DNA from: Chitinophagales bacterium
GTDB lineage: Bacteria > Bacteroidota > Bacteroidia > Chitinophagales > JADIYW01
Assembly: GCA_965216955.1 (NCBI GenBank)
Contig: CBDCGV010000016.1
Coordinates: 13,592 to 77,591 of the forward strand
Reading direction: 5' to 3'
DNA length: 64,000 nucleotides
The notes beneath the pieces were generated by a model. It was not told the DNA's origin. It did no database searches and saw nothing but the letters and a program-made list of their open reading frames with translations. Shown in pieces: positions 41,775 to 64,000 of this stretch (its first letter is position 1; the number at the start of each line of letters is the position of its first letter). The translations under genes and the position numbers were made by a program.

Positions 41775-41865
41775 ATAACTTTAATGAGGTTGTAAAATAC
41801 ATTTATTTTGGGACGATATATCCGTTTTAAAATTAATCACTTTAGGAATTCATACCATTGGTGAA

Positions 41866-43341: not shown

Positions 43342-43425
43342 ATACAGTAAATTTAATATTTAATTGGTTTACCATATTTAGATAGTTTTGAATACAATGG
43401 TATTTATTCCCCTATTTTAAGATCT

Positions 43426-46657: not shown

Positions 46658-46740
46658 TTCAACGATTAAATATAGACAGCATATTTGTTAAAAGGATATA
46701 ATAGAAACACATAAGATAATTTCATCTAACTAGAATTTCA

Positions 46741-47783: not shown

Positions 47784-48983
47784 ATGAATGATTCAAAAGT
47801 CGTTGTAAATGGTATAGCAACCTCACTACCACATCAAATATGTAAAAGATGTGTTCAAGATACAACGGTCCCAGGAATATCTTTCGATCAATCAGGCATT
47901 TGCAATTTTTGTCACTTACATGATGAAATGACAAAAATATACCCCAATGGTGCAATGGGAAGAGAAAAATTAGCCTCTATTTTTAAAACAATTAAAAAAG
48001 CAGGTAAAAAGAAAAAATATGATTGCGTTGTAGGTATAAGCGGAGGAAGAGACAGCACCTACCTTTTGTGGAAAGTAGTAAAAGAATGGGGACTAAGGCC
48101 CCTTGCCGTCCATTTTAATGATGGCTTTGACAATCCTGTTGGAGGAGAAAATATGATGAATGCAGTTACTAAGCTAGGCGTTGAGCTAAGAACTATAACT
48201 TCTGATTGGCGAGAAGCAAAGGATTTAAAAATCACCTTTTTGAAAGCTTCTGTACCGGATTTGAATTTAGGAACAGACATTGGAATTGCCACTGCGCTTT
48301 ATGGAGTTGCTCATCAAGAGGGAATAAAATATATTCTTATTGGACAATCCTTTAGAACCGAAGGTGTAAAACCGCTTTCATGGTCCTATTTTGATGGAGA
48401 CTACCTAAGAAATGTACAAAAAAAATTTGGTACGAGACCGCTACGAAAATGGACTCCAAATGACCCTGGATTTAATTTGGGAATAAAAGAGCTCACCTAT
48501 TATACGGTTTATAAAAGTATTAAAACAATAACTCCTATGTATTATACTGATTATATCCGCAAAGAAGCTGAAGCCATTATTACAAAAGAACTCAGCTGGA
48601 AGTACCCTGGCGCACATTATTTTGATGATTTATATCATAGCATAATTAAATATGTTCATCGAGTTAAATTCAATATAGATTTAAACATGAATAGTGATTC
48701 TGCTCTAGTTAGATCTAATCAAATGGATAGAGCAAAAGCATTAGAGCGAGCGCATAGCATCTATAAGATCGAAAGCGATAGAATTATTGATTTATGCATT
48801 AAGAGATTGGGCATTAGTCGAGACGAATTTGAATCTTATCTGCAACTCCCTCCAAGAACATTTAGAGACTATAAAACAAGTTATCGCTTTATTAGAACTA
48901 TGAAATATCCTATTTGGATGGCCTCACAATTAAACCTAGTACCTAAAATAGCATACAACAAATATTTCAATTGTGGCAAATAA
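47784..48983 (+). CDS. N-acetyl sugar amidotransferase (WbpG/PseA-like PP-loop ATPase)
   Basis: 399 aa. It has an N-terminal Cys4 ribbon, CKRCVQDT...CNFCHLH, and a PP-loop, VVGISGGRDSTYL. Confidence 0.8.
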   Translation: MNDSKVVVNGIATSLPHQICKRCVQDTTVPGISFDQSGICNFCHLHDEMTKIYPNGAMGREKLASIFKTIKKAGKKKKYDCVVGISGGRDSTYLLWKVVKEWGLRPLAVHFNDGFDNPVGGENMMNAVTKLGVELRTITSDWREAKDLKITFLKASVPDLNLGTDIGIATALYGVAHQEGIKYILIGQSFRTEGVKPLSWSYFDGDYLRNVQKKFGTRPLRKWTPNDPGFNLGIKELTYYTVYKSIKTITPMYYTDYIRKEAEAIITKELSWKYPGAHYFDDLYHSIIKYVHRVKFNIDLNMNSDSALVRSNQMDRAKALERAHSIYKIESDRIIDLCIKRLGISRDEFESYLQLPPRTFRDYKTSYRFIRTMKYPIWMASQLNLVPKIAYNKYFNCGK

Positions 48984-50601
48984 ACCTACATATGTACTTG
49001 GAATAAATGGTGGTGTTAGAATGGGATATCAAGATATCTCTGCTGCGCTTTCAAAAAATGGAGAAATTATTGCTGCGATAGAGGAAGAGCGGTTAAATCG
49101 CATAAAGCATTCTCCTGGTCAAATCCCCTATTTATCAATAAAAAAAGTATTACAAATTGCCCAAATAAATTTGGAAGAGGTTGACTTAGTGGTTAGCCAT
49201 GGAAGTACCTGGGGTGAAGCATATGAAAGTGTATTGAGAAAGCATTTTAAGATGTATTTCAATTATTGCCCTCCCATAAATAGGGTTCATCATCATTTAG
49301 CACATGCAGCTTCTACCTATTATGCCTCAGGTTTTAAAGAAGCCATGGTGCTATCCATTGATGCCTCAGGGGATGGCATCAGTTTACAAAAGGCTATTGG
49401 ATCTGATGGTAATTTAGAAATAGTTGAACAAATACCCAGAACCAATAGCTTAGGAATTTATTATTCTCTAATAACCCAGTTTTGCGGTTTTACCAGAGAT
49501 AGTGATGAGTACAAACTGATGGGCTTAGCACCGTATGGAGATCCAAATAAAATAAAATTAGACTGGTTGTTAGATACAATAGATGGTGGATATAAGTTTA
49601 ATCAAAACTATATTCAAAAATTAGAGCCGGGTCAACCTCAACCTTCAAGACAACAAGCCATATATGATGACAAAATATTTGAAATTTTAGGCAACCCTAG
49701 AATTCCCGGAAGTATACTAACTCAACATTATAAAGATGTTGCTGCAGCTGCCCAATTAAAGCTTGAAGATACTTTAATACAAATAGTAACTGATTTTCAT
49801 AAAAAAACAGGCTTAAGAAAGCTTTGTTTGGCGGGAGGCGTTGCTCTAAATTGCTCGGCAAATATGCTTTTAATGAATCTTCCATGGTTAAATGATGTTT
49901 ATATTCAACCTGCTGCAGGAGACAATGGAATCTCGCTGGGTTGTGCATACCTTGGATCTAAAGCTTTAAATGAAACTCCTCAAAAAATGGCTTCTGCATA
50001 TTTAGGAGATTCATATAGCAATTCTGAAATTGAGCAATATCTGAAGCTTTTCAATTTATCTTATCAAAAAATCATATCTCCTGAAAAGGAGGCCGCAAAA
50101 TTGGTTGCTCAAGGAAAAGTGATAGGCTGGTTTCAAGGAAAAATGGAGTTTGGGCCTCGAGCTCTTGGCTCCAGGAGTATTCTCGCCTCACCACTTATAC
50201 CTGAAATGAAAGCAATTATAAATCAAAAAATTAAGTTTAGAGAAGGTTTTCGGCCTTTTTGCCCTTCAGTTTTAGAAGAAGACTTTTCAGAATATTTTGA
50301 AGGCAAGCAGCACAAATCACCCTATATGACCATTAATTATAAAGTTATATCAACAAAAATTCCCAGTGCTACGCATGTTAATGGAACAGCAAGAATCCAA
50401 ACCGTAAATAAAACTCAAAACCCTTTATTCTATAACTATTTATTGGAATTGAAGCATATTTCAGGTCATGGCATATCTCTAAACACTAGTTTTAACAGGA
50501 GCAATGAACCAATTGTAGCATCTCCAAAAGATGCGGTTTCCGTATTTTATGGATCAGGATTAGATGCGTTAATAATTGGAAATTTTCTCTTAATTAAATA
50601 A
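48973..50601 (+). CDS. Carbamoyltransferase (NodU/CmcH family)
   Basis: 542 aa with a GTG start that overlaps the upstream stop by 11 nt. The conserved N-terminus YVLGINGG...DISAAL...EEERLNRIKH and the HHLAHAAS motif are present. Confidence 0.85.
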   Translation: MANKPTYVLGINGGVRMGYQDISAALSKNGEIIAAIEEERLNRIKHSPGQIPYLSIKKVLQIAQINLEEVDLVVSHGSTWGEAYESVLRKHFKMYFNYCPPINRVHHHLAHAASTYYASGFKEAMVLSIDASGDGISLQKAIGSDGNLEIVEQIPRTNSLGIYYSLITQFCGFTRDSDEYKLMGLAPYGDPNKIKLDWLLDTIDGGYKFNQNYIQKLEPGQPQPSRQQAIYDDKIFEILGNPRIPGSILTQHYKDVAAAAQLKLEDTLIQIVTDFHKKTGLRKLCLAGGVALNCSANMLLMNLPWLNDVYIQPAAGDNGISLGCAYLGSKALNETPQKMASAYLGDSYSNSEIEQYLKLFNLSYQKIISPEKEAAKLVAQGKVIGWFQGKMEFGPRALGSRSILASPLIPEMKAIINQKIKFREGFRPFCPSVLEEDFSEYFEGKQHKSPYMTINYKVISTKIPSATHVNGTARIQTVNKTQNPLFYNYLLELKHISGHGISLNTSFNRSNEPIVASPKDAVSVFYGSGLDALIIGNFLLIK

Positions 50602-50644
50602 CCTTCTGTATTAAAAAAGCAGTTTGATACGATTTGGGAAGTCC

Positions 50645-52819
50645 TTAGTCCACAATTATTATTTCTTGAAAAAGCCCATTGTCATTTGAAATTTTCAAAA
50701 CATTTATTCCCTGAACAAAGTTTTTAGTAGAAATAGTAAGCAAATTATTGTGGGGTATAGCTAACTGTTTATGATGAACTTTTCCAGCCACATCAATTAT
50801 TTCGACTTTATAGTTTTGCGTTCCACCTTCAACTTGAATCGTTAAAAGTTCTCCTTTATTAATAGGGTTAGGATAAATGGTTAGCCGTTTACTCTTTTCA
50901 GGGTAAATTGAAGTTGTAATTCCAAAATGTTCTTTTGCTTTTTCAAATGCTCTATTGCCTATTTTCTCTCCAATCAACCTACCTGGGATATCGTCAACCG
51001 GCGGGTGAATTCCTCCCCAAATTCTTGACAAACTGCATTGATCTGATGCGTCTTTATATGTTGCCCACTGAAGTTTACAATTTATACTAGGCCCTTCTTC
51101 AAATACCAAAAATTCGTTCTTTACAACATCAAACTCTCCGATTCCACCAGGAAAATAAGTATCCCCCGTCAATTTTGACAATACTTCTGCTGCAGCTCTT
51201 GAATAAGTGGAATGGCCTGATACATAACCAGCGAATGGTGGGGTTACAAAAGAAGGCCTTTGATATGGCCACCAATTTTCTGCTAAAATCCATCCAACAC
51301 CAGCTTGATCTGTTTCCGGCTCATCAATATAGTCAGGGCCTCGCCATGAATACACTTTTATTTTGCCTACATTTTCATTTCCTGAACCTGCTAAAGGATC
51401 TCCTTGCATTACAACTTCAATAAAATTGGGCACCAAAGGAATTCCATTTTTATTAAAATTTGATAAAGTAGTATCTGAACACTGTCCTTGACTGGTCATA
51501 TATCTAATAGCAGATACCGGCCTTATATAATCATACCAACCTTTAATACTCCATGCTGCTATCGCACAATCGTGCATAGCGCCACCCAAAATAAAATAGG
51601 ATTTAACATCCCATTCCAAATCATTAAGGACTGCTCCGCTGCCCTCAAATCTTTTCTCCAATAACTGATGATCGTTTACATAGTTAAGTATTGTAAACCA
51701 ATGCCCAGGCGGAGTTTCAGAATCAGGGCCATCTGCCCAGAATTCTGCTAAAATTCTACTATAATCACCTCTTGGTATTATTTGCGTCTCATAAGAATTT
51801 CCTGTTATAGGATTAACGGTATATCCCGTGCCAGGATCTCCTCCCTCAAAGAAGTCGTAAAATTCTTGATACTCTTCAAAAGTATTTGGATACTGTTGAA
51901 TATTCCCAATTGAATTGGGTGATATATCCCATAAAACACCATCGGCCGGATCAAGATGTGATGCCCAAGCAACTACTAAACTAAAATTCCACTTATATTC
52001 TTCCGACAAACTGTCTTCACCAATCAATGGCGGTGTCCCCGGGTCCATATAAACGTTGTAATTATTATTGTCTCTAGACCTAACCGTTACATCACTAACA
52101 CTTAACGAAAATGGAAATACATTTCCCCATTCAGGGCTTAAAAAGTCTGGTGTATCATCATTAGTAACATTACCCGATTGATCAATAAATTGTTCCAAGG
52201 TCAATGGCTGCCAACGGTTAGGGTTTATAATACTGGGGTTCCCTGAACTATCAACAATTAGTGGAGGATTAATTGGACTGTAATATTCGTTCTCATATTC
52301 ATTCGCTTCATTTGCTCCATCTTGATTACCAAAATTAATTATACATTCTGCAATGTAATTTCCTAAGGCAGGCAATGAACCATTTTGATAATCAATACTT
52401 GTTTCCTCTAAACTGTATCCCAGACCTGTCATCAGTGTATCAAATCTCACTTTAGTACTAATAGGATTTGGTGAGTTTACGAAACGATGTCTTAAAAGCC
52501 TATGTGCTGCATAACTCATCACCTCCTCTTGCGCCTTTTGGACATCAGTAGGAGCTTCTATAGGAATATATTCACAAAAGAAATTCCCGATAGTATTACC
52601 TAATAAATAAGGTTGAGTTCCTTCCTCAAATATGGCCCACGAATCGTATAATGCAATTGCCGTATGAAAGAGATTTCGAGCATGAACCGTAGGTCTTGCG
52701 TAATCGTCCCTTATTGCTTCCAACAACACCTCATTCCACTTTCTAGCAACTGAATGTTGAGAAAAGGAGTTAAAAGTCAAAAAAAATAGTATTAAAAAAG
52801 TAAAACTTCTTATTACCAT
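50645..52819 (-). CDS. PAP2-superfamily/vanadium-dependent haloperoxidase-like protein with a T9SS C-terminal sorting domain
   Basis: 724 aa with a signal peptide. PAP2/VHPO-like motifs are YQRP, GYVSGHSTYSRAAAEV and SRIWGGIHPPVDD. The CTD-like end is LTIYPNPINKGELLTIQV...LKISNDNGLFQEIIIVD. Confidence 0.6.
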   Translation of the reverse strand: MVIRSFTFLILFFLTFNSFSQHSVARKWNEVLLEAIRDDYARPTVHARNLFHTAIALYDSWAIFEEGTQPYLLGNTIGNFFCEYIPIEAPTDVQKAQEEVMSYAAHRLLRHRFVNSPNPISTKVRFDTLMTGLGYSLEETSIDYQNGSLPALGNYIAECIINFGNQDGANEANEYENEYYSPINPPLIVDSSGNPSIINPNRWQPLTLEQFIDQSGNVTNDDTPDFLSPEWGNVFPFSLSVSDVTVRSRDNNNYNVYMDPGTPPLIGEDSLSEEYKWNFSLVVAWASHLDPADGVLWDISPNSIGNIQQYPNTFEEYQEFYDFFEGGDPGTGYTVNPITGNSYETQIIPRGDYSRILAEFWADGPDSETPPGHWFTILNYVNDHQLLEKRFEGSGAVLNDLEWDVKSYFILGGAMHDCAIAAWSIKGWYDYIRPVSAIRYMTSQGQCSDTTLSNFNKNGIPLVPNFIEVVMQGDPLAGSGNENVGKIKVYSWRGPDYIDEPETDQAGVGWILAENWWPYQRPSFVTPPFAGYVSGHSTYSRAAAEVLSKLTGDTYFPGGIGEFDVVKNEFLVFEEGPSINCKLQWATYKDASDQCSLSRIWGGIHPPVDDIPGRLIGEKIGNRAFEKAKEHFGITTSIYPEKSKRLTIYPNPINKGELLTIQVEGGTQNYKVEIIDVAGKVHHKQLAIPHNNLLTISTKNFVQGINVLKISNDNGLFQEIIIVD

Positions 52820-52974
52820 AAATAATGTTTAGTATAAATATCTTTTGAAAAGTCTCTGATATAAGTACATTTCCTATTTTACGACTTCAAAGTATATTTT
52901 CAATATAAAAGTAACTAGATATTTGCTCTTTTGCTAAAAACTACATTTAGTAGATAACTATCTCTATTTACCGT

Positions 52975-54066
52975 TCAAAACTTATTGATCATTTCTATTA
53001 CACAATCAACTTCTTCATCTGTCATTTCAGGAAAAAGAGGTAGAGAGACACATTTATTTGCATGATACTCTCCTATCGTAAAATCACCATTTTTATAATT
53101 TAAAAACTGATATGCTCTCTCTAAATGCAAAGGCGTTTTGTAGTGAATCGCATACCCTATTCCATTATCCCTTAAATATTCTATAAATTTCTCTCTTTCT
53201 TTCACATGCACCACGAAAAGATGGTATACAGATTGTGCTCCTTCAATTATCTTTTGAAAGATTATCTTATCATTTTTGATCTGTTCCAAATAAAGTGCAG
53301 CTATTGCTCTTCTTCTTAGATTCCATGCATCTAAGTAGACCAATTTCTTCGACAATATAAATCCCTGAAAACCATGCATTCTATAATTGTATCCTATGGT
53401 AGGAAAAGCATCATTAACTTTCCCACAATTTCTTAAGGATATTAATTGATCAACTAGATCTTTATCATTCAATATTAATGCTCCTCCCTCACCATAAGCT
53501 CCTAAGTTTTTACTTGGATAAAAGCTAAAACATCCAATATCACCAAATGTGCCCACATTTTGGTTTTTAAATATTGCTCCATGCGCCTGTGCTGTATCCT
53601 CTATCACTTTTAATCGATGTTGTTTTGCCAACGATAAAACAGCATCTATATTTGCTGGAGTCCCATATAAATGAACAACCATAATCGCCTTTGTTCTATT
53701 CGTAATCGCGGCCTCAATCTTAGTTATGTCTACATTCCAGGTATGTTCATCTATATCTACAAAGACAGGTTTTGCACCTGTATAAACTATCGCATTAGCG
53801 GAACTAATAAATGTATTTACCGGGACAATTACTTCATCACCTTCTTTAATACCAAGGGTTAAAAGTGCTAGATGTAAAGCCGCTACCCCACTGCTAACAG
53901 CAACCGCATATTTGACATTATTGTATTCGGCAAAATCACGCTCAAATTGTTCAACATATTTCCCTGAAGAATATGCAGTTGACTTAAAGAATTCATCCAA
54001 GTCGCGAAAGATATCGTCTTTTAATTTAGCATACTGTCTGTTAAGATCAAAAAAAGGAATGTTCAT
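52975..54066 (-). CDS. DegT/DnrJ/EryC1/StrS-family PLP-dependent sugar aminotransferase
   Basis: 363 aa. It has SSGKYVEQFERDFAEYNNVKYAVAVSSGVAALHLAL and the FSFYPSKNLGAYGEGGA Lys region. Confidence 0.85.
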   Translation of the reverse strand: MNIPFFDLNRQYAKLKDDIFRDLDEFFKSTAYSSGKYVEQFERDFAEYNNVKYAVAVSSGVAALHLALLTLGIKEGDEVIVPVNTFISSANAIVYTGAKPVFVDIDEHTWNVDITKIEAAITNRTKAIMVVHLYGTPANIDAVLSLAKQHRLKVIEDTAQAHGAIFKNQNVGTFGDIGCFSFYPSKNLGAYGEGGALILNDKDLVDQLISLRNCGKVNDAFPTIGYNYRMHGFQGFILSKKLVYLDAWNLRRRAIAALYLEQIKNDKIIFQKIIEGAQSVYHLFVVHVKEREKFIEYLRDNGIGYAIHYKTPLHLERAYQFLNYKNGDFTIGEYHANKCVSLPLFPEMTDEEVDCVIEMINKF

Positions 54067-54788
54067 TTACTTTTTGTCTTTTTAATCCTAAATTTTATTA
54101 TTTCCCAAACAAGTTTAAACAGCTCAAAAGTAGCTTTACTAACAGTTCTAATCGAACCACCCTTTGAGTTTCCAAAATCTCGGTTTAAGTATTTTGATTC
54201 CACCTCTATAACTTTGAAGCCCAGTAAATTTAATTTCGCGCAAATTTCACTTTCGATTAATGAACTTCTCAGATTCATATTGATTACACTTAGTTGCTTT
54301 ATTTTATAAACCTTAATCCAATTAACATCCAACAAATTTAACCTGAGAAACAATTTGTTAGTTTGCCTATTAAAACTTGACAAAAAATTCCTAAACCATG
54401 TATAGCCTTCCTTTTGAGGTCGATAAAAAGAAATATAGTTTTCTTCTGGAAAATCAAGATAATCACTAAGCTCAAAAATATCAAATTGCCCATCTCCTGG
54501 GATGGCACAAATATTTTCATATTTACATGCACGGTAGCCTTTTAACAGGGCATTTCCTATGCCCATATTAGATTCATTTCTTAAAAGTACAAAATGGGCA
54601 TTTCTTTTAGTAAAATCAAGAATATACTCTTCTGAGCCATCATTACTTCCATCATCTACTACAATAACTTCATATTCTCTATTGTAAAAATGATCTTTAC
54701 AAAGAGATCTGACTGACTGTAACACCTTTTGAATATTTCCAGCTTCATTAAAAGAAAAAATTACTAATGACCAAGATTGCAACATCAA
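54063..54788 (-). CDS. Family 2 glycosyltransferase (DPM1/ArnC/GtrB-like)
   Basis: 241 aa. It has VIFSFNEAGNI and EVIVVDDGSNDGS. Its stop overlaps the downstream gene's start by 4 nt, and its start directly abuts the upstream oxidoreductase's stop. Confidence 0.75.
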   Translation of the reverse strand: MMLQSWSLVIFSFNEAGNIQKVLQSVRSLCKDHFYNREYEVIVVDDGSNDGSEEYILDFTKRNAHFVLLRNESNMGIGNALLKGYRACKYENICAIPGDGQFDIFELSDYLDFPEENYISFYRPQKEGYTWFRNFLSSFNRQTNKLFLRLNLLDVNWIKVYKIKQLSVINMNLRSSLIESEICAKLNLLGFKVIEVESKYLNRDFGNSKGGSIRTVSKATFELFKLVWEIIKFRIKKTKSK

Positions 54789-55796
54789 CTAAATTAATAC
54801 TTCCACACCTCCCTTAATAACTGATTCGTTGGCTTTTTCAATAATAGACACAACACTCAATGCTGATTGCCAATTTGCCATTGGCGTTTTGTTATTAATA
54901 ACAGCATCATAAAAATCCTTTGCCATTAAAGACAATGGCTCCTCCAAATTAAATTTGGGCACTAAGATATCTCCAAGTCTATAATCTACCAATACCTCGT
55001 CTTTTTTATCCTTTGAGATATAAACAAAATTCTTTTCATAAATTTTCAGTTTATCACTTGGCTCAATATCGTCATAAACGATCATTTTATGCTCTCCCCC
55101 AATTAACATCCTCCTTATTTTAACCGGAGACGACCACGAAACATGCATATGCACAATTAAATTACTTTCATAATTTAAAGTTATATATGCTATATTCTCT
55201 ACTTTATTTGGCAAGTGGGAAATAGCGTTTACCTGAACAGAATAAGGGCGTTCATCCAATAGATAATTGATAATTGATATATCGTGGCAAGCTAAATCCC
55301 AGATAACATTCACATCGTTTTGAATGATGCCTAAATTAATACGAACGGCATCAATATTTATAATTTTCCCAAAATCATCAGACTTAGAAATCTCCTTAAT
55401 TTTTCTAACTGCGCCATTATATAAGAAAGTATGATCCACCATTAAAACCTTATTGTTTTTCTGGGCTAAATCTATTAATGTCTTTAACTGAGCAGTTTGT
55501 GTTACAATAGGCTTTTCAATTAAAACGTGCTTTTTATATTGTAAAGAAAGCAAGGCCAATTCGTAATGGTACAAAACAGATGTTGCAATGATAATCGCAT
55601 CACAATTGCCATTAATTATTAAGTCTTTCCCATCATTAAAAACCGTAACCGTAGGATATGACTTACTGATTAATTGCTGCTTTGCAGTGTCTTTTTCTGC
55701 AATGCCCTCAATAGTACACCCTTCGAGATGATAGAAATTTCTTACCAAATTAGGCCCCCAATATCCATATCCAATTATCCCTACCTTTAATCTCAT
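54789..55796 (-). CDS. Gfo/Idh/MocA-family NAD-dependent sugar oxidoreductase (WbpB/GnnA-like)
   Basis: 335 aa with the N-terminal Rossmann motif KVGIIGYGYWGPNLVRNF and the EKP motif VLIEKPI. Confidence 0.8.
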   Translation of the reverse strand: MRLKVGIIGYGYWGPNLVRNFYHLEGCTIEGIAEKDTAKQQLISKSYPTVTVFNDGKDLIINGNCDAIIIATSVLYHYELALLSLQYKKHVLIEKPIVTQTAQLKTLIDLAQKNNKVLMVDHTFLYNGAVRKIKEISKSDDFGKIINIDAVRINLGIIQNDVNVIWDLACHDISIINYLLDERPYSVQVNAISHLPNKVENIAYITLNYESNLIVHMHVSWSSPVKIRRMLIGGEHKMIVYDDIEPSDKLKIYEKNFVYISKDKKDEVLVDYRLGDILVPKFNLEEPLSLMAKDFYDAVINNKTPMANWQSALSVVSIIEKANESVIKGGVEVLI

Positions 55797-55850
55797 GATT
55801 TATTGTCACAAAATAATGGAAAATATATATCTTAACAATTCATTGCTTAC

Positions 55851-56621
55851 ATGAATACTTCAATAAATAATATTGAGCCGCCTTTATTTTTTTTGGATGA
55901 ACAAGATACCTATGCTGGTAACGCGCCATATTTCTACAATAAGGATAAATATGACTGGGTTAACACATTAGAAAAAAATTATCATATTATATTAGAAGAA
56001 TTCAGCCCATATATCAAAGGAGAAAAAGAATTAGAATCTACAAGTATAAACCCGCCTTATTTATCTTCCAAAGATGCCTGGCAAAATGTATATTTTTGGA
56101 ATTTCATGTGGAAAAAACATAAAAACTGTAAGCGGTTTCCCAAAACTTATCAGCTTTTAAAATCAATCCCCAACTTAACTTTTGCTGAGGTCACCGCACT
56201 AAAGCCCAATGCTCGTATTTTACCACATATTGGTGAAACAAATATCACCATCAGAGGACATCTCGGACTAAAAATACCCGGGGCGTTTCCTGATTTAGGC
56301 ATTCAAGTCGGTGATGAAAAAAGAGGATGGGAAGAAGGAAAAGTTGTATTGTTTAGTGATGCACACCGTCACACAGTTTGGAATGATACTGAGGAAAAGC
56401 GATTTGTGTTAGTTTTTGATGTCTTAAAAGATGAATATGCGAAACATAAGTATTGGATGAATGCACAATGCTTGGGTGCATTAACCATTAAGTTTTTTGA
56501 TGAACACATTAACTTGTTCAAGAAACTGCCGAATTTTTTATTGAACTTTTTCCATAAATTTTTCAGTATTCTATGGTATATATATCTTCCTGTGCAAAGG
56601 AATATTTCATTTTTGCCTTAG
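55851..56621 (+). CDS. Aspartyl/asparaginyl beta-hydroxylase (AspH/LpxO/OlsC) family Fe(II)/2OG oxygenase
   Basis: 256 aa. It has ARILPHIGETNITIRGHLGLKIP and WEEGKVVLFSDAHRHTVWN, which match the family's conserved blocks. The C-terminus is hydrophobic. Confidence 0.7.
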   Translation: MNTSINNIEPPLFFLDEQDTYAGNAPYFYNKDKYDWVNTLEKNYHIILEEFSPYIKGEKELESTSINPPYLSSKDAWQNVYFWNFMWKKHKNCKRFPKTYQLLKSIPNLTFAEVTALKPNARILPHIGETNITIRGHLGLKIPGAFPDLGIQVGDEKRGWEEGKVVLFSDAHRHTVWNDTEEKRFVLVFDVLKDEYAKHKYWMNAQCLGALTIKFFDEHINLFKKLPNFLLNFFHKFFSILWYIYLPVQRNISFLP

Positions 56622-56730
56622 CTAGTTAGATGGCCAATTGTAATTTCTTAAGCTTTTTACCCCCTCCTTACTCTGATATTTGTGATAATACATTCAAATT
56701 TCAATCTTTGTATAAAGTAAGCATTTAGCC

Positions 56731-57450
56731 TTGAATACGGTTTTAATTATTGGCGCTTCATCGGGAATAGGAAAAGCATTGGCAATTCATTATGCCAAAG
56801 CCAACAATAAAGTTATAGGAATTGCAAGACGAAATGAGCTACTCAATGAATTAGCAACAATTTTCCCTAATAATTTCATTCCAATTTGTTTAGATATTTC
56901 AAATGTTGGAAAGACTAGAGAAACATTAAAAAATATTGTCGTAGAATACCCAAATCTAGAACTTATTATTCACTGCGCAGCAATCGTTAAAGACAATAAA
57001 AATTTGGATTTTGAAATCGAAAAAGATACTCTTAGCATTAATGTTTGGGGATTTACAAACATTAGCGATTGGGCATATAATCATCTTAAATTAAAAAATA
57101 AGGGACGCTATGCTGTAATCACTTCTGTTTTTGGAAGTAGAGGAAGAAGGTTAGCCCCAGCATACAACGCATCTAAAGCATTTCAAATTAATTATTTAGA
57201 AGGCCTGAAACAAAAGGCTACATTTGAAAAATTAAAAATTAGCATTTTAGATATTAGAGCTGGTTTTGTTGATACCGCAATGGCTCCGGACAAGACAATG
57301 GGTTTACCTATTATAAGTGTAGATAAAGCTGCTTATAAAATTTCAAAGGCTGTATGTTCAAATGCTAGCGTATGTTATATTCCTTATTACTGGTATATCC
57401 TTGACTGGATACTAAAATTAATTCCAAAGAGAATTTTTTATAGGCTTTAA
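56731..57450 (+). CDS. Short-chain dehydrogenase/reductase (SDR)
   Basis: 239 aa with a TTG start. It has the Rossmann motif IIGASSGIGKALA and the catalytic YNASKAF. Confidence 0.8.
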   Translation: MNTVLIIGASSGIGKALAIHYAKANNKVIGIARRNELLNELATIFPNNFIPICLDISNVGKTRETLKNIVVEYPNLELIIHCAAIVKDNKNLDFEIEKDTLSINVWGFTNISDWAYNHLKLKNKGRYAVITSVFGSRGRRLAPAYNASKAFQINYLEGLKQKATFEKLKISILDIRAGFVDTAMAPDKTMGLPIISVDKAAYKISKAVCSNASVCYIPYYWYILDWILKLIPKRIFYRL

Positions 57451-57603
57451 ATTATTCTAAGTAAATATTCAGGCAATAAAGAGAATTGTCAATACTATAC
57501 TTGTCACCTAATTAATTGAACCAATTTCAACTTGATATAGTAGCAACTAGTATGATAATTAAATATATTAACTTCGATTAATAGAATATTACTTATTACT
57601 AAT

Positions 57604-59148
57604 ATGAAAATTTGCCTTATAAATCCACCTGTTTTAGGCGTACTAGAGCCTTGGTATGACCAGCCAGATTTTGGTCGTACTGGATTAGCGTATTTAGCAG
57701 GCTATTTAAGGCAATTTGAGGGATACGAAATTAACATTATTGACGCTAAATTCGAGCGAATTAATTTTCAAGAAGTATTACGAAGAGTGTTAGACTTACA
57801 ACCTGATATTGTCGGTTTAACAGCATTTACTAACGAAATTAAACCAGCTGCATATCAGGCTGCACTAATTAAAGAAAAATGTGCTGATATAGTGACTATT
57901 ATTGGTGGTGTGCATGTAACCGCTTTGCCAATTGAGACACTTAAAGAGTTTTCTTCTTTTGATATTGGAGTTGTTGGAGAAGGGGAAGTAACCTTACATG
58001 AACTTTGTACAGCACTTCAACATAAACAACCATTGGAAGAAATTGAGGGTTTGGTAATTAGACAATCTGGACAAATATTAAAAACGGCTACAAGAAAGAG
58101 AACCATTGACCTTGATACCATGCCACTTCCCGCGTGGGATTTATTGCCAAAAGCCGACACCTATTTTATTCAAACATTAAGAGGTTGTCCTTATGCCTGT
58201 AAATTCTGTATGAATCCTAATGGGCGAGTGGCCAGAAAACGCAGTGTCTCAAATGTCATCGATGAGCTGAATTGGATTATTCAAGATTTTCATCCTAAAC
58301 GGGTTTCTTACGGAGATGAATTGTTCAGCATTGATATTCCACGTACGAAAGCATTACTCATAGAAATGGCCGAAGAAGGTATTGGTGATCATGTAAAATG
58401 GGATGTTCAAACCCATGTTAATTATGTTAATTATGAGCTGTTTCAATTGTTTAAAAAAGCTAAGGTAGATAGAGTTGAATTAGGTATAGAGACAGGCGAT
58501 CTGGACATTATGCGCAAAATGGGTAAAGGCACTAATATAGATATGATTACAAAAGCCTATTCTGATGCCAAAAAAGCTGGAGTAAAAATTGGCACTTTCT
58601 TTATTATTGGGCAACCTAATGAGTCGAAACAAAGTATAAAAAGCACTATAAAACTGGCTCAAAAGATAAACCCCGAATTACCAATGTTTGGTGTAATGAC
58701 GCCCTATCCGGGAACTGCTGTAGCGAAGATGGCCGCTAAAGGAGAAGGGGGTTACAAGCTCTTATCAACTGACTGGGATGAATATAATAAGCAAATTGGA
58801 GGAGCCATGGAGTTTGCTAATTTAACACGTCGCCAAATTGAATGGATACAATTAAAAGCATATGCTAGTGTATTTTTAGGAAATGGTAGAATTTTAGATT
58901 TCTTAAAGCTAGTATGGGAGTACAGAGTCGGTGCCTTTAAATTGCTGAAAAAAATGTTGTTTAACAGAAAATCTTTGCATGCTACAATAATTAAACCCTC
59001 GAATTATGATACATTGCTCTCTTCAGACTTCTCTCCTACCGCAGAAGTTCTTATTGAATCAACTGAAAACTGGAATAAAACACAAAAAACATCATTAAAG
59101 CGGATCAAAGAAAAAATGCCGGAATTAACTAAATTAGAGCAAGCATAA
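57604..59148 (+). CDS. B12-binding-domain radical SAM enzyme
   Basis: 514 aa. The N-terminal cobalamin-binding-like domain runs IVGLTAFT...IIGGVHVTALP. The radical SAM motif CPYACKFC follows. Confidence 0.85.
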   Translation: MKICLINPPVLGVLEPWYDQPDFGRTGLAYLAGYLRQFEGYEINIIDAKFERINFQEVLRRVLDLQPDIVGLTAFTNEIKPAAYQAALIKEKCADIVTIIGGVHVTALPIETLKEFSSFDIGVVGEGEVTLHELCTALQHKQPLEEIEGLVIRQSGQILKTATRKRTIDLDTMPLPAWDLLPKADTYFIQTLRGCPYACKFCMNPNGRVARKRSVSNVIDELNWIIQDFHPKRVSYGDELFSIDIPRTKALLIEMAEEGIGDHVKWDVQTHVNYVNYELFQLFKKAKVDRVELGIETGDLDIMRKMGKGTNIDMITKAYSDAKKAGVKIGTFFIIGQPNESKQSIKSTIKLAQKINPELPMFGVMTPYPGTAVAKMAAKGEGGYKLLSTDWDEYNKQIGGAMEFANLTRRQIEWIQLKAYASVFLGNGRILDFLKLVWEYRVGAFKLLKKMLFNRKSLHATIIKPSNYDTLLSSDFSPTAEVLIESTENWNKTQKTSLKRIKEKMPELTKLEQA

Positions 59149-59164
59149 TTTGATTAATTATTCA

Positions 59165-60592
59165 ATGAAAAAAGTACTTGTACTTAATCTACCTTATCCC
59201 GAGCGGATTACAAGGCGCTATATGTGTTCTTACACGTCTCCAGAGTCGTTGTTTCCTCCACTTGAACTTATCTCTATTGCTGCTATTGGACGAGATTGGA
59301 AAAATGCGGATGTTACTTTGGTTGATGCCATTGCTATGGAATATAGCTTTGATGAAACATTGAGTCAAATTAAGAACTATCAACCTGATATGATTATTAC
59401 CTTAACCGGATTAGATTGTATTGAAGAAGATTGTGCTACTATTAAACGGCTTAAGGCAACAACCAAGAATGCTATTTGGGTAATTTTTGGTCATTATACA
59501 AAAGAATTTCCGAAAGAGGTATTAACAGCTTCAACCGCTGATTATGCTATTTTGGGAGAACCTGAACTTATTTTCTCAGATTTATATGATGCACTCTATA
59601 CGACAAAAAAGGCATTAAATGATGTTAATGGAATTGTGTATTCCTCTAATGGAAAATTGATACAAAACGGCACTGACAATAGGATCCCCGATCCAAATGT
59701 CATTCCTATGCCCGCATACAATTTATTACCCAAGGATAAATATTTTGAGCCTATGTTGAAACGTCCTTTTAGCATGATTCAAACTGCAAGAGGATGTCCA
59801 TACCCCTGTACCTATTGTGTTAAGTCGTATGGATCCAAACTAACTATTTTATCACCAGAAAGAGTGGTTGAAGAGATTATATACTTAAAGCAGCTCCATA
59901 ACATCAAGTCATTGAGATTTATTGATGATACTTTTACAATCAACAAAAAACGTGTCATCGAAATCTGTAAATTATTAGTTGAGAAAGATGTTCAGATTGA
60001 ATGGGCGTGTTTAAGTAGGACAGATAACCTGACCGAAGAGGTTTTGTACTGGATGAAAAAATCTGGTTGTAAAAGAATTTACTTTGGTTTAGAATCTGGA
60101 AGCCAGAGAATTTTAGATTTATACCGCAAAAAGGTAAATGTAAAAGAGGCTAAAGAAAGTTTATTATTAGTTAGAAAACATGGCATAGAAACGTCAGGGT
60201 TTTTCATGTCAGGATATCCACAAGAAACTGAAGAAGATTTTATTCAAACAGTACAGTTTGCCATTGATTCCAAATTAACATTTGCTTCTTTTAATCCCCT
60301 TACTCCTTATCCTGGAACAGCTATTTTTAATGAATTAAAGATGGACTTAAACTTCTCTATTTTACCTTACAAAAATGAATTTATTGATTCTTCTTTAGCA
60401 GAGAATTTTACAAGGCGAAAGAAAATTTTTTACAAGAAATTTTACTTAAGACCAAATTATATACTTATAAATTTTAAAAGCCTTATAATGAATTTTAGAG
60501 AGTTATACAATTATACAAGCAGCATGATCAATTATTTATTCTTTAAAGGGGGATTTGCCATTTCAGGAATCAAGGGTCCAAAGGATAAGTAA
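59165..60592 (+). CDS. B12-binding-domain radical SAM enzyme (paralog of the upstream gene)
   Basis: The ATG at 59165 (MKKVLVLNLPYPE...) is preferred over the track's TTG at 59150. It has the motif CPYPCTYC and the same domain order as the upstream gene. Confidence 0.85.
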   Translation: MKKVLVLNLPYPERITRRYMCSYTSPESLFPPLELISIAAIGRDWKNADVTLVDAIAMEYSFDETLSQIKNYQPDMIITLTGLDCIEEDCATIKRLKATTKNAIWVIFGHYTKEFPKEVLTASTADYAILGEPELIFSDLYDALYTTKKALNDVNGIVYSSNGKLIQNGTDNRIPDPNVIPMPAYNLLPKDKYFEPMLKRPFSMIQTARGCPYPCTYCVKSYGSKLTILSPERVVEEIIYLKQLHNIKSLRFIDDTFTINKKRVIEICKLLVEKDVQIEWACLSRTDNLTEEVLYWMKKSGCKRIYFGLESGSQRILDLYRKKVNVKEAKESLLLVRKHGIETSGFFMSGYPQETEEDFIQTVQFAIDSKLTFASFNPLTPYPGTAIFNELKMDLNFSILPYKNEFIDSSLAENFTRRKKIFYKKFYLRPNYILINFKSLIMNFRELYNYTSSMINYLFFKGGFAISGIKGPKDK

Positions 60593-60863
60593 ACTAAACA
60601 CGACTAAAAAGATAATAGTTGAACATTTCACTTGTAAAAGATATATGAAGGAATGTGTGATAGAAATTTGATATACATATTTGGAATGACAATTATTTTT
60701 TAAATTTAGGTATGATATATACTTTTACACTGTTATTTACTTTTTCTCTAAATACCTCCCATAAAAAAGTCCTAGATACCTCAACTGTTCATCGAGGCAT
60801 TGTTCAGACTTTTAATAATTTAAAGACTCCACGTTTGTTCTATTTTTTTGACTAGACCATTAT

Positions 60864-62081
60864 ATGGAAGTAAAAGAAAAAGCTATTAGCAAAGTTGAAA
60901 ACATATTTGTATTTGTTGTTTGTGGAGATAATGAACATATCACCACATTAAACTATTCTCTCAACTCACTTAAGCAGTTTACGGATAACAAGATCATTGT
61001 AGTAACAGATACTTCTCGTAACTCTTTAGAAATTGTTCATGACAATATTGTAGACATTATAACACCAAAGGAATACGATCATCACCAAGCAAGTATATTT
61101 CTTAAAACTAGTTTGCATAAGATATTACCCGTTGGAAATAACTATTGCTATATGGACTCAGATGTCATTACGCTTTCCAATGAGTGTGATCAAGTCTTTG
61201 ATCAATTTATACCTCCAATTAGATTCGCTCCAGATCACTGTAAACTACCAGCTTTTAGCCCTTCGGCTATTTATTGTGGCTGCTATGAAAAAAATCAAAG
61301 AGAAAAAAAGGAGCTGAGAGAATTGCTTATGAAATTTGATTTAAGCGAGAAGTTATCAGGTTATCAAAAGTTTCATCACAATGAATTATTAAAAATAATA
61401 TATAAAATCAGGTCAAAACCCTTTAGAAATATTAGCAAAATTCTTGGTTTTTTATTTTCATGTAATAAATTCCAATTGAACGAAACTTACTATTTCCTAA
61501 GAAAATCTAGAACCTGGCATTTGACAACTACTGATGAGCCTATTCTTTTTGACTTCAGGCTTATTATTAAAGATGTAGAAAGCCATTCATCATTTAGATG
61601 GAGTAGATATAAGATCGCTTGGATTAATGCAGATAATGAAAACATCTTCAACCCTACTTGTCAGCATTTGGCGGATAAAATCAAAGAAAAATTTGATATA
61701 AAAGTCGGAAAGAAAAAGTGGCAACATTGGAATGGAGGTGTATTTTTATTCAATGATAGTAGCAAAGCATTTCTGGACGCCTGGCATTCTAAGACAATTG
61801 CTGCATTTTATGACAAAGATTGGCGAACTAGAGATCAAGGAACCTTAGTGGCAACGGCCTGGGAATTTAACCTTCAAAAACATCCATTATTGGATAAAAA
61901 ATGGAATTTTATTGCTGATTACAACAATCAATTCTTAGAATTTGATGACGATAATAATATATCAGATAATGCATTTCAAACTAAGCATAAACCTGTGTTT
62001 ATTCATGTTTATCATAACTTCGGGAATGAGCAATGGGATGTATGGAACTGGATTGACAATCAATTAAAATCAGCGATCTAG
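60864..62081 (+). CDS. Hypothetical protein, GT-A-fold glycosyltransferase-like (GT8-like DXD)
   Basis: 405 aa. It has FVFVVCGDNEH, the DXD-type CYMDSDVITL and the GT8-like HWNGGVFLFNDSSKAFLDAW. This is a weak call made by eye. Confidence 0.4.
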   Translation: MEVKEKAISKVENIFVFVVCGDNEHITTLNYSLNSLKQFTDNKIIVVTDTSRNSLEIVHDNIVDIITPKEYDHHQASIFLKTSLHKILPVGNNYCYMDSDVITLSNECDQVFDQFIPPIRFAPDHCKLPAFSPSAIYCGCYEKNQREKKELRELLMKFDLSEKLSGYQKFHHNELLKIIYKIRSKPFRNISKILGFLFSCNKFQLNETYYFLRKSRTWHLTTTDEPILFDFRLIIKDVESHSSFRWSRYKIAWINADNENIFNPTCQHLADKIKEKFDIKVGKKKWQHWNGGVFLFNDSSKAFLDAWHSKTIAAFYDKDWRTRDQGTLVATAWEFNLQKHPLLDKKWNFIADYNNQFLEFDDDNNISDNAFQTKHKPVFIHVYHNFGNEQWDVWNWIDNQLKSAI

Positions 62082-62129
62082 TTTTTGCTATAAAAGCAAT
62101 AATGTTTAATAGGATTAAGATGTGTAAGA

Positions 62130-63152
62130 ATGAAATTAAATACCACTATTAAGAAGTGCTTAATTTCATTAACCCTATTTCTAGTAACACTGGAAATAGG
62201 ATTAAGGATAACAGGACAATTCAAAACTTATGCTGAGCGCAATGCTGGAAAATATATAAGTTATTGGAGTAAAGCCAGAGCAACAACTTGGTATCATAAT
62301 TGGCGGCCCAATGAACTCATACAATATAACAACAAAGAATTTAAATACAGTTACCCGGCCAATTCATTAGGGTTAAGAGAAATAGAATACGTTAAAAATG
62401 TAGATAAATCATTAGTCATAACTATTGGAGATTCCTTTACCGAAGGAGATGGTGCTCCTTATGAAGGGGCTTATCCAAGGCACCTAGAACAATTACTAAA
62501 TGACAGAGCTGAAAAAGTAAAACCAGCGAGTGTATATAATGCCGGAGTCTGTGGAAGTGATGTCTGGTTTAGCTATACTTTAATTCGAGATAAACTACTG
62601 GCCTATCATCCAGATCTGATTATTGTAGCAATTAACACATCAGACATTAATGATCTTTTTATAAGAGGTGGAAAGGAAAGATTTCAACCTAATATGAATG
62701 TCAAGTATAAAAATGGCCCATGGTTCAAAGAGTTATTTCGTATCAGTCACATTGTTAGAGGTATTGTTCACTATGCTGGTTATGATGATGATTTAATTAA
62801 TAGTTGGAAAAAAGAGCAATTAAGAAATGAATCCATAATAAGTATCATTGAGGCAATACGGCATATTAATTTTGAATGTAAATCAAACAACACGAAATGT
62901 GTTTTTGTCTTACATCCAGTACCGGGAATACCGCCGGATTCTGATCTTGATTTCAGAACTATTAAAGATGTACTACCTTCGCATTATCCAATATACGATA
63001 TTTACAAAGATATGGACTTTGCCACGAAAGACCTTGACGCAAATGATTTTTTTTGGCCAATTAATGGACATTATAATGAATATGGATATAAAATAATGGC
63101 AGAAATAATATATCGTCTACTAAAAAAAGAAAACCATTTAAAAGATATCTAA
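62130..63152 (+). CDS. Membrane-anchored SGNH/GDSL-family protein (paralog of 34499-35800)
   Basis: 340 aa with an N-terminal TM helix. Block I is LVITIGDSFTEGDGAP and the C-terminal motif is FFWPINGHYNEYGY. Confidence 0.6.
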   Translation: MKLNTTIKKCLISLTLFLVTLEIGLRITGQFKTYAERNAGKYISYWSKARATTWYHNWRPNELIQYNNKEFKYSYPANSLGLREIEYVKNVDKSLVITIGDSFTEGDGAPYEGAYPRHLEQLLNDRAEKVKPASVYNAGVCGSDVWFSYTLIRDKLLAYHPDLIIVAINTSDINDLFIRGGKERFQPNMNVKYKNGPWFKELFRISHIVRGIVHYAGYDDDLINSWKKEQLRNESIISIIEAIRHINFECKSNNTKCVFVLHPVPGIPPDSDLDFRTIKDVLPSHYPIYDIYKDMDFATKDLDANDFFWPINGHYNEYGYKIMAEIIYRLLKKENHLKDI

Positions 63153-63375
63153 GCTACCAATGCTTATCTTCTTCTCAATAAAAGAGAACTTTAAAATATT
63201 TACAATGCAATAAATGATGCAGTTCATAAATAAAATCTTATTCCATATAAACCAATTTAAGCAATACCAAAAGTTAAAGGGTAATGCCAAAAACTTGAAA
63301 GACCGCACTATTGCCCCAACAGTTGATTCGAATAGTCTGCATGAGTATAACAAAGGTCGAAATAAAAAGAAGAAA

Positions 63376-64000
63376 ATGTTACTCTGTTTTGCACCATTTT
63401 CTAATCTTTATTTTTCGAGTAAAGGTGCCGTTGGAGTTTGTTGCCATAATCGAAAATATACCGTAGGCAACTACCCTGAAGAAAGTATTCTAGATATTTG
63501 GAATGGAGAAAAAATAAATCTGCTTCGCAAACATATCGTAAATAATAATTTATCGCTAGGTTGTCAATTCTGCCAATATGATTTTGACAAAAAAAGATAT
63601 AATTCATTACAAGCGCTCCATTTTGATCAGATTCCTCTAAATAGCCAATATCCATCCATGATGGAATTTGAGTTAGACATTACCTGCAATCTAGAATGCA
63701 AAATGTGCAATGGAGATTTTTCCTCTTTGATTCGAAAAAAAAGAGATAACCTACCACCTTTAGAAAAAAAGTATGATGATAACTTCGTTGAAGAGTTAAA
63801 GCCGTTTTTCAAACATCTAAAAGAAGCCAGATTCAGTGGAGGTGAGCCATTTTTAATAGAAATCTATTATAAGATCTGGAAATCTCTAATAGAAATAAAT
63901 CCATCGTGTTTAATTATTGTACAATCAAATGGAACGGTATTAAATGAAAAAGTGAAATCTATTTTGAATGATGGTCGCTTTGAAATAGGCGTTTCTCTCG
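63376..64000 (+). CDS. Radical SAM protein with an N-terminal twitch/SPASM-like Cys-rich domain, 5' part only; runs off the right edge
   Basis: Absent from the ORF track because it has no stop in the window. Translation from the ATG at 63376 gives MLLCFAPFSNLYFSSKGAVGVCCHNRKYTVGNYPEESILDIWNGEKINLLRKHIVNNNLSLGCQFCQ...MMEFELDITCNLECKMCNG...ARFSGGEPFL. That is a SPASM-type block, then the CxxxCxxC core, then the SAM-binding GGEP. Confidence 0.7.
   Translation, partial: MLLCFAPFSNLYFSSKGAVGVCCHNRKYTVGNYPEESILDIWNGEKINLLRKHIVNNNLSLGCQFCQYDFDKKRYNSLQALHFDQIPLNSQYPSMMEFELDITCNLECKMCNGDFSSLIRKKRDNLPPLEKKYDDNFVEELKPFFKHLKEARFSGGEPFLIEIYYKIWKSLIEINPSCLIIVQSNGTVLNEKVKSILNDGRFEIGVSL

Follow-up and report, generated by a model that had tools for sequence, protein, structure and literature searches.

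A dense block of tailoring genes occupies positions 47784-64000, the right-hand end of a 64,000-nucleotide stretch of a Chitinophagales bacterium genome (GCA_965216955.1, contig CBDCGV010000016.1), hereafter called the window. The block is a genuine gene cluster of a kind without earlier characterisation, and not a chance juxtaposition. It could encode a pathway similar to the Gtr and Arn systems, which would add a 3-amino sugar, radically tailored, to a surface glycoconjugate, a reading to which we give about an even chance of being right.

Thirteen open reading frames (ORFs) are found in this region, with identities assigned using Pfam and NCBIfam. They are given here with position in the window, strand, and assignment (GT, glycosyltransferase; SAM, S-adenosylmethionine; 2OG, 2-oxoglutarate; TM, transmembrane segment; AF2, AlphaFold2):

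47784..48983, +: WbuX/WbpG-family N-acetyl-sugar amidotransferase with a PP-loop, here WbuX (TIGR03573, 227.8 bits against a cutoff of 203)
48973..50601, +: NodU/CmcH/TobZ-type carbamoyltransferase, here CarbT (Carbam_trans_N and Carbam_trans_C)
50645..52819, -: VCPO/PAP2-like protein of 724 aa, secreted by the type IX secretion system (T9SS) (Por_Secre_tail, VCPO_2nd, DUF6851)
52975..54066, -: DegT-family sugar aminotransferase, here DegT (PF01041, E 9e-114)
54063..54788, -: short GT2 of 241 aa, ArnC/GtrB/DPMS type by profile and fold
54789..55796, -: Gfo/Idh/MocA oxidoreductase, here GFO (GFO_IDH_MocA domains)
55851..56621, +: AspH-family Fe/2OG hydroxylase (Asp_Arg_Hydrox, PF05118, E 2e-37)
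56731..57450, +: classical short-chain dehydrogenase/reductase (SDR) with a hydrophobic C-terminus (adh_short)
57604..59148, +: rSAM1, predicted class-B radical SAM enzyme with a B12-binding domain (67.7 bits, cutoff 32.1; Radical_SAM 75 bits)
59150..60592, +: rSAM2, second class-B-type radical SAM enzyme (Radical_SAM 89 bits)
60864..62081, +: 'K', GT8/GT24-like GT-A protein of 405 aa with an insertion of ~130 aa (AF2 model, pLDDT 92; Foldseek)
62130..63152, +: SGNH/GDSL hydrolase or acyltransferase with an N-terminal membrane anchor (Lipase_GDSL_2; one predicted N-terminal TM)
63376..64000, continuing past the window edge, +: N-terminal-twitch (N-twitch) radical SAM enzyme (SPASM at residues 4-66, Radical_SAM at 104-205)

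An earlier note on this DNA had listed twelve enzymes in the block, and all of them were found in their places by Pfam and NCBIfam, or by AF2 and Foldseek in the case of K. Its list was thus correct in every entry, but left out the 724-aa gene. Comparison with loci of other genomes (numbered with the prefix L) divides the region in two: the right end of the window, with K, the SGNH gene, and the N-twitch enzyme, is the start of a widespread 'K module', and 47.8-60.6 kb is a rarer 'radical-SAM amino-sugar module', often docked to the K module (L086, L088/L010, L078).

The set formed by WbuX, CarbT, DegT, the short GT2, GFO, the AspH-like hydroxylase, and the two class-B-type radical SAM enzymes recurs, whole or largely, in at least seven other assemblies, one of them from the Planctomycetota, with identities of 41-81% for most of the set. 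This grouping goes beyond chance, because it is co-conserved in other genomes. By its homologs, the organism of the window falls among Chitinophagales-like Bacteroidota. GCA_020635975.1 (L088 and L010) repeats the order of the window: WbuX (75% identity) and CarbT (59%) are followed on the opposite strand by DegT (48%), GT2 (44%), and GFO (43%), and the series ends with the AspH-like gene (66%), an SGNH-like gene, rSAM1 (59%), and rSAM2 (60%). The GT2 (59%) and GFO (69%) of L086 are divergent from the AspH-like gene (81%), SDR (53%), rSAM1 (68%), and rSAM2 (68%), and most of the set is present, with a shuffled gene order, in L173, L174, L175, and L078. One block of the Pirellulaceae locus L170, with identities spanning 24-56%, holds rSAM1 (56%), a DedA/VTT protein, GT2, DegT (41%), GFO (46%), WbuX (36%), a HisF-like protein, CarbT (41%), and an SGNH protein; only WbuX and rSAM1 are left in L172, as a divergent pair. 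This comparison of neighbourhoods, proposed in the earlier note as a check, found the genes to be co-conserved elsewhere, and supports its view of one functional unit of tailoring genes with amino-sugar chemistry at its centre. The radical SAM enzymes are part of this unit: across genomes, rSAM1 and rSAM2 accompany GFO and GT2, in most cases together with the AspH-like gene, WbuX, and DegT, and often with a carbamoyltransferase.

The block (31-36% GC) does not differ in base composition from most of the window and gives no sign of recent import; the possibility of a recent horizontal island was rejected on this ground. A sigma-70 scan found promoter-like sites about 2 standard deviations (sd) above the expectation from shuffled sequence and terminators within 1 sd of it, marking no unit boundaries, and a search of the gaps for the Bacteroides-type TAnnTTTG motif found none.

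The 724-aa T9SS-secreted gene, inserted between CarbT and DegT, occurs only in this genome among the loci compared, its protein having no homolog in any related locus. It is probably a passenger outside the pathway, since it has no counterpart in related loci and since CarbT and DegT abut directly in L088, with no insert. A role as the pathway phosphatase was rejected, the gene being conserved in none of the related loci. The module of L086 is likewise interrupted by a T9SS-tailed gene, which is different and unrelated.

The lipid carrier is suggested by the short GT2. A profile of 41 GT2 sequences, compared with the Protein Data Bank (PDB), matched ArnC over its full length (E 3e-17). The AF2 model (pLDDT 92.5) gave a top 24 in Foldseek made up entirely of ArnC, GtrB, and DPMS, with TM-scores of 0.56-0.79 (0.72-0.79 for ArnC chains) and a root-mean-square deviation of 2.9 Å at the best TM-score. 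The long C-terminal helix is kept (residues 213-240), and the homologs are also short, at about 226-265 aa. The model places the enzyme structurally in the polyprenyl-phosphate glycosyltransferase class (GtrB/ArnC/DPMS), and the scaffold of the cluster is probably a lipid carrier.

The amino-sugar enzymes suggest the nature of the sugar. The best solved relatives of DegT are QdtB (E 5.5e-96), DesV, WbpE, and NtdA, so that by sequence comparison it is closest to C-3 sugar aminotransferases; orthologs with 41-48% identity are found in L088, L173, L174, L170, and L020. GFO, a candidate nucleotide-sugar 3-dehydrogenase, adjoins the GT2 in every case (L086, L088, L173, L174, L175). WbuX has no adjacent glutaminase partner, and its gene overlaps that of CarbT by 11 nt. 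WbuX orthologs (55-75% identity) adjoin a carbamoyltransferase or rSAM1 in L088, L010, L078, L174, L175, L172, L020, L048, L050, and L044. The WbuX-CarbT pairing, either direct or split by one nitrilase-like gene, is seen in L088 and in five loci with a K homolog (K-loci L010, L020, L044, L050, and L078); L048 is a sixth K-locus with WbuX, but it lacks CarbT.

The presumed ammonia-donor partner of WbuX varies by lineage. It is a nitrilase/CN-hydrolase in Bacteroidota loci (L078 4945-5760; L010 15598-16434; L174 20905-21560; L175 15550-16107) and the Planctomycete locus has a HisF-like protein instead (L170 16784-17566); the window WbuX has no nitrilase- or HisF-like partner within 64 kb. A carbamoyltransferase of 538-615 aa is accompanied by two small genes in L088 (12994-15355), L089 (6110-8471), and L173 (4495-6841). 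The small genes of L088 and L089 are annotated as SxtJ and DUF5989, forming a saxitoxin-cluster-like trio beside the module, and the L173 pair is without annotation.

Further tailoring would depend on the hydroxylase, the SDR, and the radical SAM enzymes. The AspH-like hydroxylase is the best-conserved protein of the block (81% identity in L086, 66% in L088, 59% in L174, and 57% in L173), and is absent from L170, L175, and L078. The earlier note had described it as 'AspH/LpxO/OlsC-family'. Its place in the AspH family holds, but not orthology to OlsC (104.7 bits vs. 450) or LpxO (57.4 vs. 500), and the AspH-family match is the sole source of the accompanying idea of a modified lipid head group. 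The SDR is conserved in L086 only (53% identity).

rSAM1 combines an N-terminal B12-binding domain with a CX3CX2C core, present as CPYACKFC, and judging from these features it is a class-B enzyme. The best 120 of its 1406 homologs are 56-100% identical, and its orthologs belong to the module in L086, L088, L173, L174, L175, and L170; the ortholog in L172 has only WbuX beside it. Of the 'two B12-binding radical SAMs' described earlier, rSAM1 is above the B12-binding threshold, but rSAM2 is not (20.9 bits vs. a cutoff of 32.1); BchE/HpnJ-type alignments of rSAM2 take in the N-terminal domain (residues 34-463). Orthologs of rSAM2, with 45-68% identity, are found in L001/L086, L088, L173, L174, L175, and L078. 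Sub-threshold NCBIfam matches of the radical SAM enzymes are to the AprD4 family (74 and 119 bits), ApyD, and C-methyltransferases of RiPPs (ribosomally synthesised peptides with post-translational modifications), and all radical SAM enzymes of the cluster score far below the RiPP equivalog cutoffs. C-methylation by rSAM1 and rSAM2 is an inference, though a probable one.

Polytopic membrane transferases are found with the module in its relatives. GtrC-like proteins of the family DUF6056/GT_STM0557_N (PF19528) lie in or beside it, as single copies in L086/L001, L078, L010, and L173 and as three paralogs in L174, and most of them are followed by a small signal-anchored protein. STM0557 is the gtrC of the Salmonella gtrLT2_I cluster (PMC2909390). 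The corresponding position in L170 and L175 is taken by 8-TM proteins of ~540 aa, and the only flippase-related hint is the DedA/VTT protein of the Planctomycete locus L170. The window itself contains two genes, 12 kb leftward of the block, that the earlier survey had overlooked (TPR, tetratricopeptide repeat):

32641..34569, +: GT-C-like polytopic membrane protein of 642 aa with C-terminal TPRs, assigned by similarity to K-locus GT-C proteins
34499..35800, +: SGNH paralog following it (weak Lipase_GDSL_2)

The GT-C-like protein is 35% identical (E 6e-109) to a 678-aa protein that closes the K-SGNH cluster of L001, and 22-35% identical, in local alignments, to PMT_2+TPR proteins of K-loci. The DD motif of its first loop (D43, D44) is invariant, and the homolog in L002 carries a PMT_2 annotation; when a GT-C/TPR family profile was compared with the PDB, TPR matches dominated, and the result is uninformative on the membrane domain. 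These similarities make the protein a candidate periplasmic transferase. The SGNH paralog resembles those of L001 and L085, with 32-37% identity by blastp and as much as 39% by tblastn.

Wzx, Wzy, Wza, ABC exporters, phosphoglycosyltransferases (PGTs), polyketide synthases (PKSs), and nonribosomal peptide synthetases (NRPSs) had no match among the ORFs of at least 100 aa in the whole 64 kb, and the gaps between genes hold only AT-rich spurious ORFs of 15-71 aa, none of them a convincing precursor peptide, in agreement with the earlier note. The cluster is not a standard wzx/wzy O-antigen locus, as no Wzx, Wzy, or PGT is found among these ORFs. The statement that scaffold, exporter, and polymerase are missing is correct for the block, but it mostly reflects the window edge and the overlooked gene. 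It needs revision as regards the scaffold, because the GT2 is of the ArnC/GtrB type, which makes a lipid carrier the probable scaffold, and as regards exporter and polymerase, because relatives carry GtrC-like transferases, PMT_2+TPR GT-Cs, and ABC-2 exporters, and the window has a GT-C-like gene.

The second part of the region is defined by K. The closest folds in Foldseek are the UGGT catalytic domain, XXYLT1, glycogenin, WbbM, and LARGE1 (probability 1.0, target-normalised TM-scores of 0.5-0.62), and D98xD100, H381, and H384 are invariant in 35 homologs. K has no Pfam or NCBIfam match. Its homologs number 995, and among those listed only 1 carries PF01501. An alignment scan of species-representative genomes with K yielded 346 loci, nearly all labelled Bacteroidota, with a best identity of 51%; K is the marker of a widespread Bacteroidota locus. 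SGNH genes, often as 2-5 paralogs, follow K in L001, L085, L010, and others. Clustering of the ORFs from 84-85 K-loci gave the following neighbours:

AsnB-type amidotransferase, 54 loci
second GT8-like protein, 50 loci
NAD-epimerase, 45 loci
UbiA, 44 loci
PMT_2+TPR GT-C, 44 loci
PhyH, 34 loci
ABC ATPase (ABC_tran), 23 loci
N-twitch radical SAM enzyme, 21 loci
SGNH, two clusters, 18 and 22 loci
CMAS-type methyltransferase, 20 loci
ABC-2 permease, 16 loci
carbamoyltransferase, 15 loci
DegT, 12 loci
WbuX, 6 loci
B12 radical SAM enzyme, 5 loci

Only four kinds of polytopic membrane protein recur near K, namely UbiA (44 loci), the PMT_2+TPR GT-C (44), a 6-TM protein without a family (20), and the ABC-2 permease (16). 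As far as the polytopic membrane proteins were checked, Wzx-like ones occur in only two K-loci, and there is no recurrent Wzy or PGT candidate in the 84-85 loci. An ABC-2 permease and ATPase of the Wzm/Wzt type are absent from the window; an ABC exporter may lie beyond its right edge. The N-twitch enzyme scores 119.8 bits against NF033640 (cutoff 170), on the 208 of ~470 residues that fall inside the window. Its full-length homologs (49-56% identity) adjoin K, and homologs stand beside K in 21 loci, with up to six paralogs in L096. The relatives that a metagenome scan found with the in-window part lie on short contigs and do not exceed 73% identity.

Several other regularities were seen around K. 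A near-constant triplet lies upstream of it, consisting of a CMAS-type methyltransferase, a UbiA prenyltransferase, and an AsnB amidotransferase (e.g., L083 4114-7767; L010 4767-8592). The UbiA protein matched no characterised subfamily (best 36 bits), and may serve the K module as its lipid-linking enzyme. Rows of paralogs adjoin K, with up to six genes for N-twitch radical SAM enzymes in some loci and five for SGNH proteins in others (L096 7249-16164; L097 127-8582; L001 11263-17423; L010 11187-17638; L085 4612-10772), and the two expansions look mutually substituting, as a variable tailoring set.

From the gene identities, the folds of GT2 and K, and the co-conservation, we infer the chemical steps that follow and their order, as well as the carrier, topology, and acceptor. 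GFO would oxidise a UDP-N-acetylhexosamine at C-3 in the cytoplasm, and DegT would aminate this position. WbuX would convert an N-acetyl to an acetamidino group and CarbT would attach a carbamoyl group, while the AspH-type hydroxylase, the SDR, and rSAM1/rSAM2 would modify the sugar further, by hydroxylation, redox steps, and probably C-methylation. The short GT2 would then load the sugar on polyprenyl phosphate and, after flipping, a polytopic membrane GT would pass it to a surface acceptor. In the relatives this enzyme could be the GtrC-like DUF6056 protein or a PMT_2/TPR GT-C, and in this genome the GT-C-like protein encoded at 32641-34569 or the product of a gene past the right edge. The acceptor could be lipopolysaccharide (LPS), another glycan, or a glycoprotein, and the membrane-anchored SGNH proteins would act in the periplasm.

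Several results weigh against such a Gtr/Arn-like pathway. The top NCBIfam match of GFO, UDP-GlcNAc 3-dehydrogenase, is below its cutoff (158 bits vs. 450). In L086 and L175, the visible parts include no DegT gene, and the 3-amino step is therefore not universal. No N-acetyltransferase is present in the cluster, neither rSAM1 nor rSAM2 reaches an NCBIfam equivalog cutoff, and the GT2 is devoid of the TM hairpin of ArnC and GtrB. On the membrane side, the 64 kb contain no DUF6056/GtrC homolog and no flippase (GtrA, ArnE/F, Wzx, or DedA), and the GT-C-like gene is 12 kb from the block, with six unrelated genes between. Experimental or literature support for the scheme was sought, and none was found.

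Other readings start from the same genes. The module could make only an unusual cytoplasmic nucleotide sugar for a conventional polymer, either an ABC-dependent O-polysaccharide or a capsule built by K, the GT8-like protein, and other GTs, in which case the GT2 would be a glycan GT of the ordinary kind and not a loader of lipid phosphate. Classic routes to O-antigen precursors, Wbp among them, use Gfo/DegT/WbuX chemistry, K and the second GT8-like protein are soluble GT-A enzymes, and ABC_tran (23 loci) and the ABC-2 permease (16 loci) accompany K in other Bacteroidota. Nevertheless, fold and profile of the GT2 match polyprenyl-phosphate GTs specifically (the whole top 24), no initiating PGT, chain-length, or termination machinery recurs in the 84-85 loci, and the relatives have GtrC-like membrane GTs inside the module; the Planctomycete module, moreover, encodes a DedA and an 8-TM protein but no ABC exporter. 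We regard this nucleotide-sugar reading as unlikely.

That the target is the head group of a membrane lipid, either lipid A or an aminolipid, is quite improbable in our estimation. The hydroxylase and SDR would then act on acyl chains and the sugar would be placed on lipid A, like L-Ara4N or galactosamine. Arn-like logic normally ends on lipid A, and the hydroxylase, the best-conserved protein of the block, is in the family that includes LpxO and OlsC; this explanation also overlaps the Gtr/Arn-like scheme, in which lipid A could be the acceptor. The hydroxylase, however, scores far below the OlsC and LpxO cutoffs and is not found in L170, L175, and L078, the window scans showed no lipid A or ornithine-lipid synthesis genes nearby, and the TPR-bearing GT-Cs may point to protein or polymer acceptors. 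A diffusible specialised metabolite, aminoglycoside-like or a RiPP, with the radical SAM enzymes working as in gentamicin biosynthesis (GenK/GenD1) or peptide maturation, seems very improbable. Gfo and DegT enzymes, a carbamoyltransferase, and B12 radical SAM enzymes are the toolkit of the kanosamine, gentamicin, and tobramycin pathways, and both the sub-threshold matches to AprD4, ApyD, and RiPP C-methyltransferases and the SxtJ/DUF5989/carbamoyltransferase trio of L088 fit with it. On the other side, there is no 2-deoxy-scyllo-inosose synthase, NRPS, or PKS, neither a dedicated efflux pump nor a resistance gene was seen, and the module is surrounded by genes for membrane GTs, SGNH proteins with a membrane anchor, and GT-C enzymes. 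A RiPP cluster was rejected, as there is no precursor peptide in the gaps.

Comparison with characterised systems shows where the cluster follows them and where it departs. With Gtr (GtrA/GtrB/GtrC of Salmonella, Shigella, and their phages), it has in common a GtrB-fold polyprenyl-phosphate GT2 and, in the modules of relatives, PF19528 GtrC-family proteins. In contrast, the window has neither a GtrA nor a GtrC homolog, the GT2 carries no TM hairpin, and the sugar would not be plain glucose, since 8-9 tailoring enzymes precede the transfer, three being radical SAM enzymes. Arn (PmrHFIJKLM, L-Ara4N on lipid A) has a like order of steps, namely oxidation of a UDP-sugar, transamination by a DegT protein (ArnB family), ArnC-like loading, and transfer by a GT-C (ArnT/PMT_2 superfamily), and ArnC is the closest solved relative of the cluster GT2. 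However, the oxidoreductase here is Gfo/Idh/MocA and not ArnA, the aminotransferase is C-3-like and not C-4, the cluster has no formyltransferase, deformylase (ArnD), or ArnE/F, and its GT-C candidates carry TPRs. The Wbp pathway of P. aeruginosa (2,3-diacetamido/acetamidino uronic acids) has in common the pair of a WbpB-like GFO and a WbpE-like DegT, as well as a WbpG-like WbuX. The cluster lacks the WbpA UDP-sugar 6-dehydrogenase, the WbpD acetyltransferase, the WbpI 2-epimerase, and wzx/wzy, whereas Wbp has no counterpart of its radical SAM enzymes, AspH-like hydroxylase, and carbamoyltransferase.

In mycobacterial PpgS/Rv3779 and Francisella FlmF2/FlmK, a short soluble-type GT2 makes a polyprenyl-phosphate-linked amino sugar, which a GT-C moves to an envelope glycan. 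PpgS is a weak NCBIfam match of the cluster GT2 (26.7 bits), the similarity being marginal, and we know of no radical SAM, amidino, or carbamoyl tailoring in these two systems. The class-B radical SAM enzymes of aminoglycoside pathways (GenK, GenD1, AprD4 family) have the same architecture of B12-binding and radical SAM domains beside Gfo/DegT chemistry, but the cluster proteins are below every equivalog threshold, and their context is one of membrane glycosyltransferases and not of an aminocyclitol pathway. Overall, the cluster shares the logic of Gtr, Arn, and Wbp, yet it belongs to none of them, and the combination of radical SAM, AspH, amidino, and carbamoyl tailoring is an addition found in none of the three. 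A literature search on the gene combination, DUF6056/DUF6438, N-twitch radical SAM enzymes in polysaccharide loci, and cobalamin radical SAM enzymes in O-antigen clusters returned nothing relevant.

Elsewhere in the window, the GT-C-like gene and SGNH paralog (32641-35800) are divergent from a 2450-aa T9SS Ig_7 protein, and the same trio of a GT-C-like protein, SGNH paralogs, and a giant T9SS protein occurs in L001, where it is contiguous with the K cluster. The giant T9SS-tailed Ig-repeat protein of the window (25091-32443) has a GC content of 43-47%, against ~33% in the remainder. Between the GT-C-like gene and the cluster (36387-47529) lies a run of T9SS cargo (FG-GAP/ASPIC, two beta-propellers) together with a GH76 protein, a 491-aa membrane protein with an HTTM domain, a 385-aa protein, and a Sel1-repeat protein; the related loci contain homologs of none of these genes. 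A locus for the utilisation of beta-glucan (laminarin-type), unrelated to the cluster, is found at 483-21241, with two GH17-like proteins, GH30, GH16, an MFS_2 transporter, large proteins without a family, and a Y_Y_Y/LuxR hybrid regulator.

A large gene (~800 aa or more), with a T9SS tail wherever its end can be seen, stands directly after the GT-C/TPR gene in about nine of the about 36 loci that have a downstream gene (among them L002, L011, L018, L021, L026, L063, L081, and L083). The TPR-GT-C enzymes may glycosylate giant adhesins in the manner of TMTC proteins, although T9SS cargo is dense in these genomes and the count comes with no background. A more specific conjecture, which we consider rather unlikely, is that this Bacteroidota/Planctomycetota module uses its two cobalamin-type radical SAM enzymes, the AspH-like hydroxylase, the amidotransferase, and CarbT to build a hyper-modified 3-amino sugar on polyprenyl phosphate, and that TPR-bearing PMT_2-type GT-Cs transfer it, TMTC-like, to giant Ig-repeat T9SS adhesins and not to LPS. 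If true, this would be the first class-B radical SAM chemistry in cell-envelope glycan decoration.

Environmental Bacteroidota dominate many soils, waters, and sludges. To our knowledge, the surface glycans of such organisms (Chitinophagales, Flavobacteriales) are almost unstudied, and we know of no case in which the enzymes of this cluster work together. Several of its proteins lend themselves to assay, namely the short GT2 resembling ArnC, the Gfo/DegT pair, and WbuX. Even if the proposed scheme is wrong, the co-conservation still marks a coherent pathway. If the Gtr/Arn-like pathway is right, it would bring a new sugar structure, new substrates for class-B and N-twitch radical SAM enzymes, and a new flavour of Gtr/Arn-type envelope decoration.

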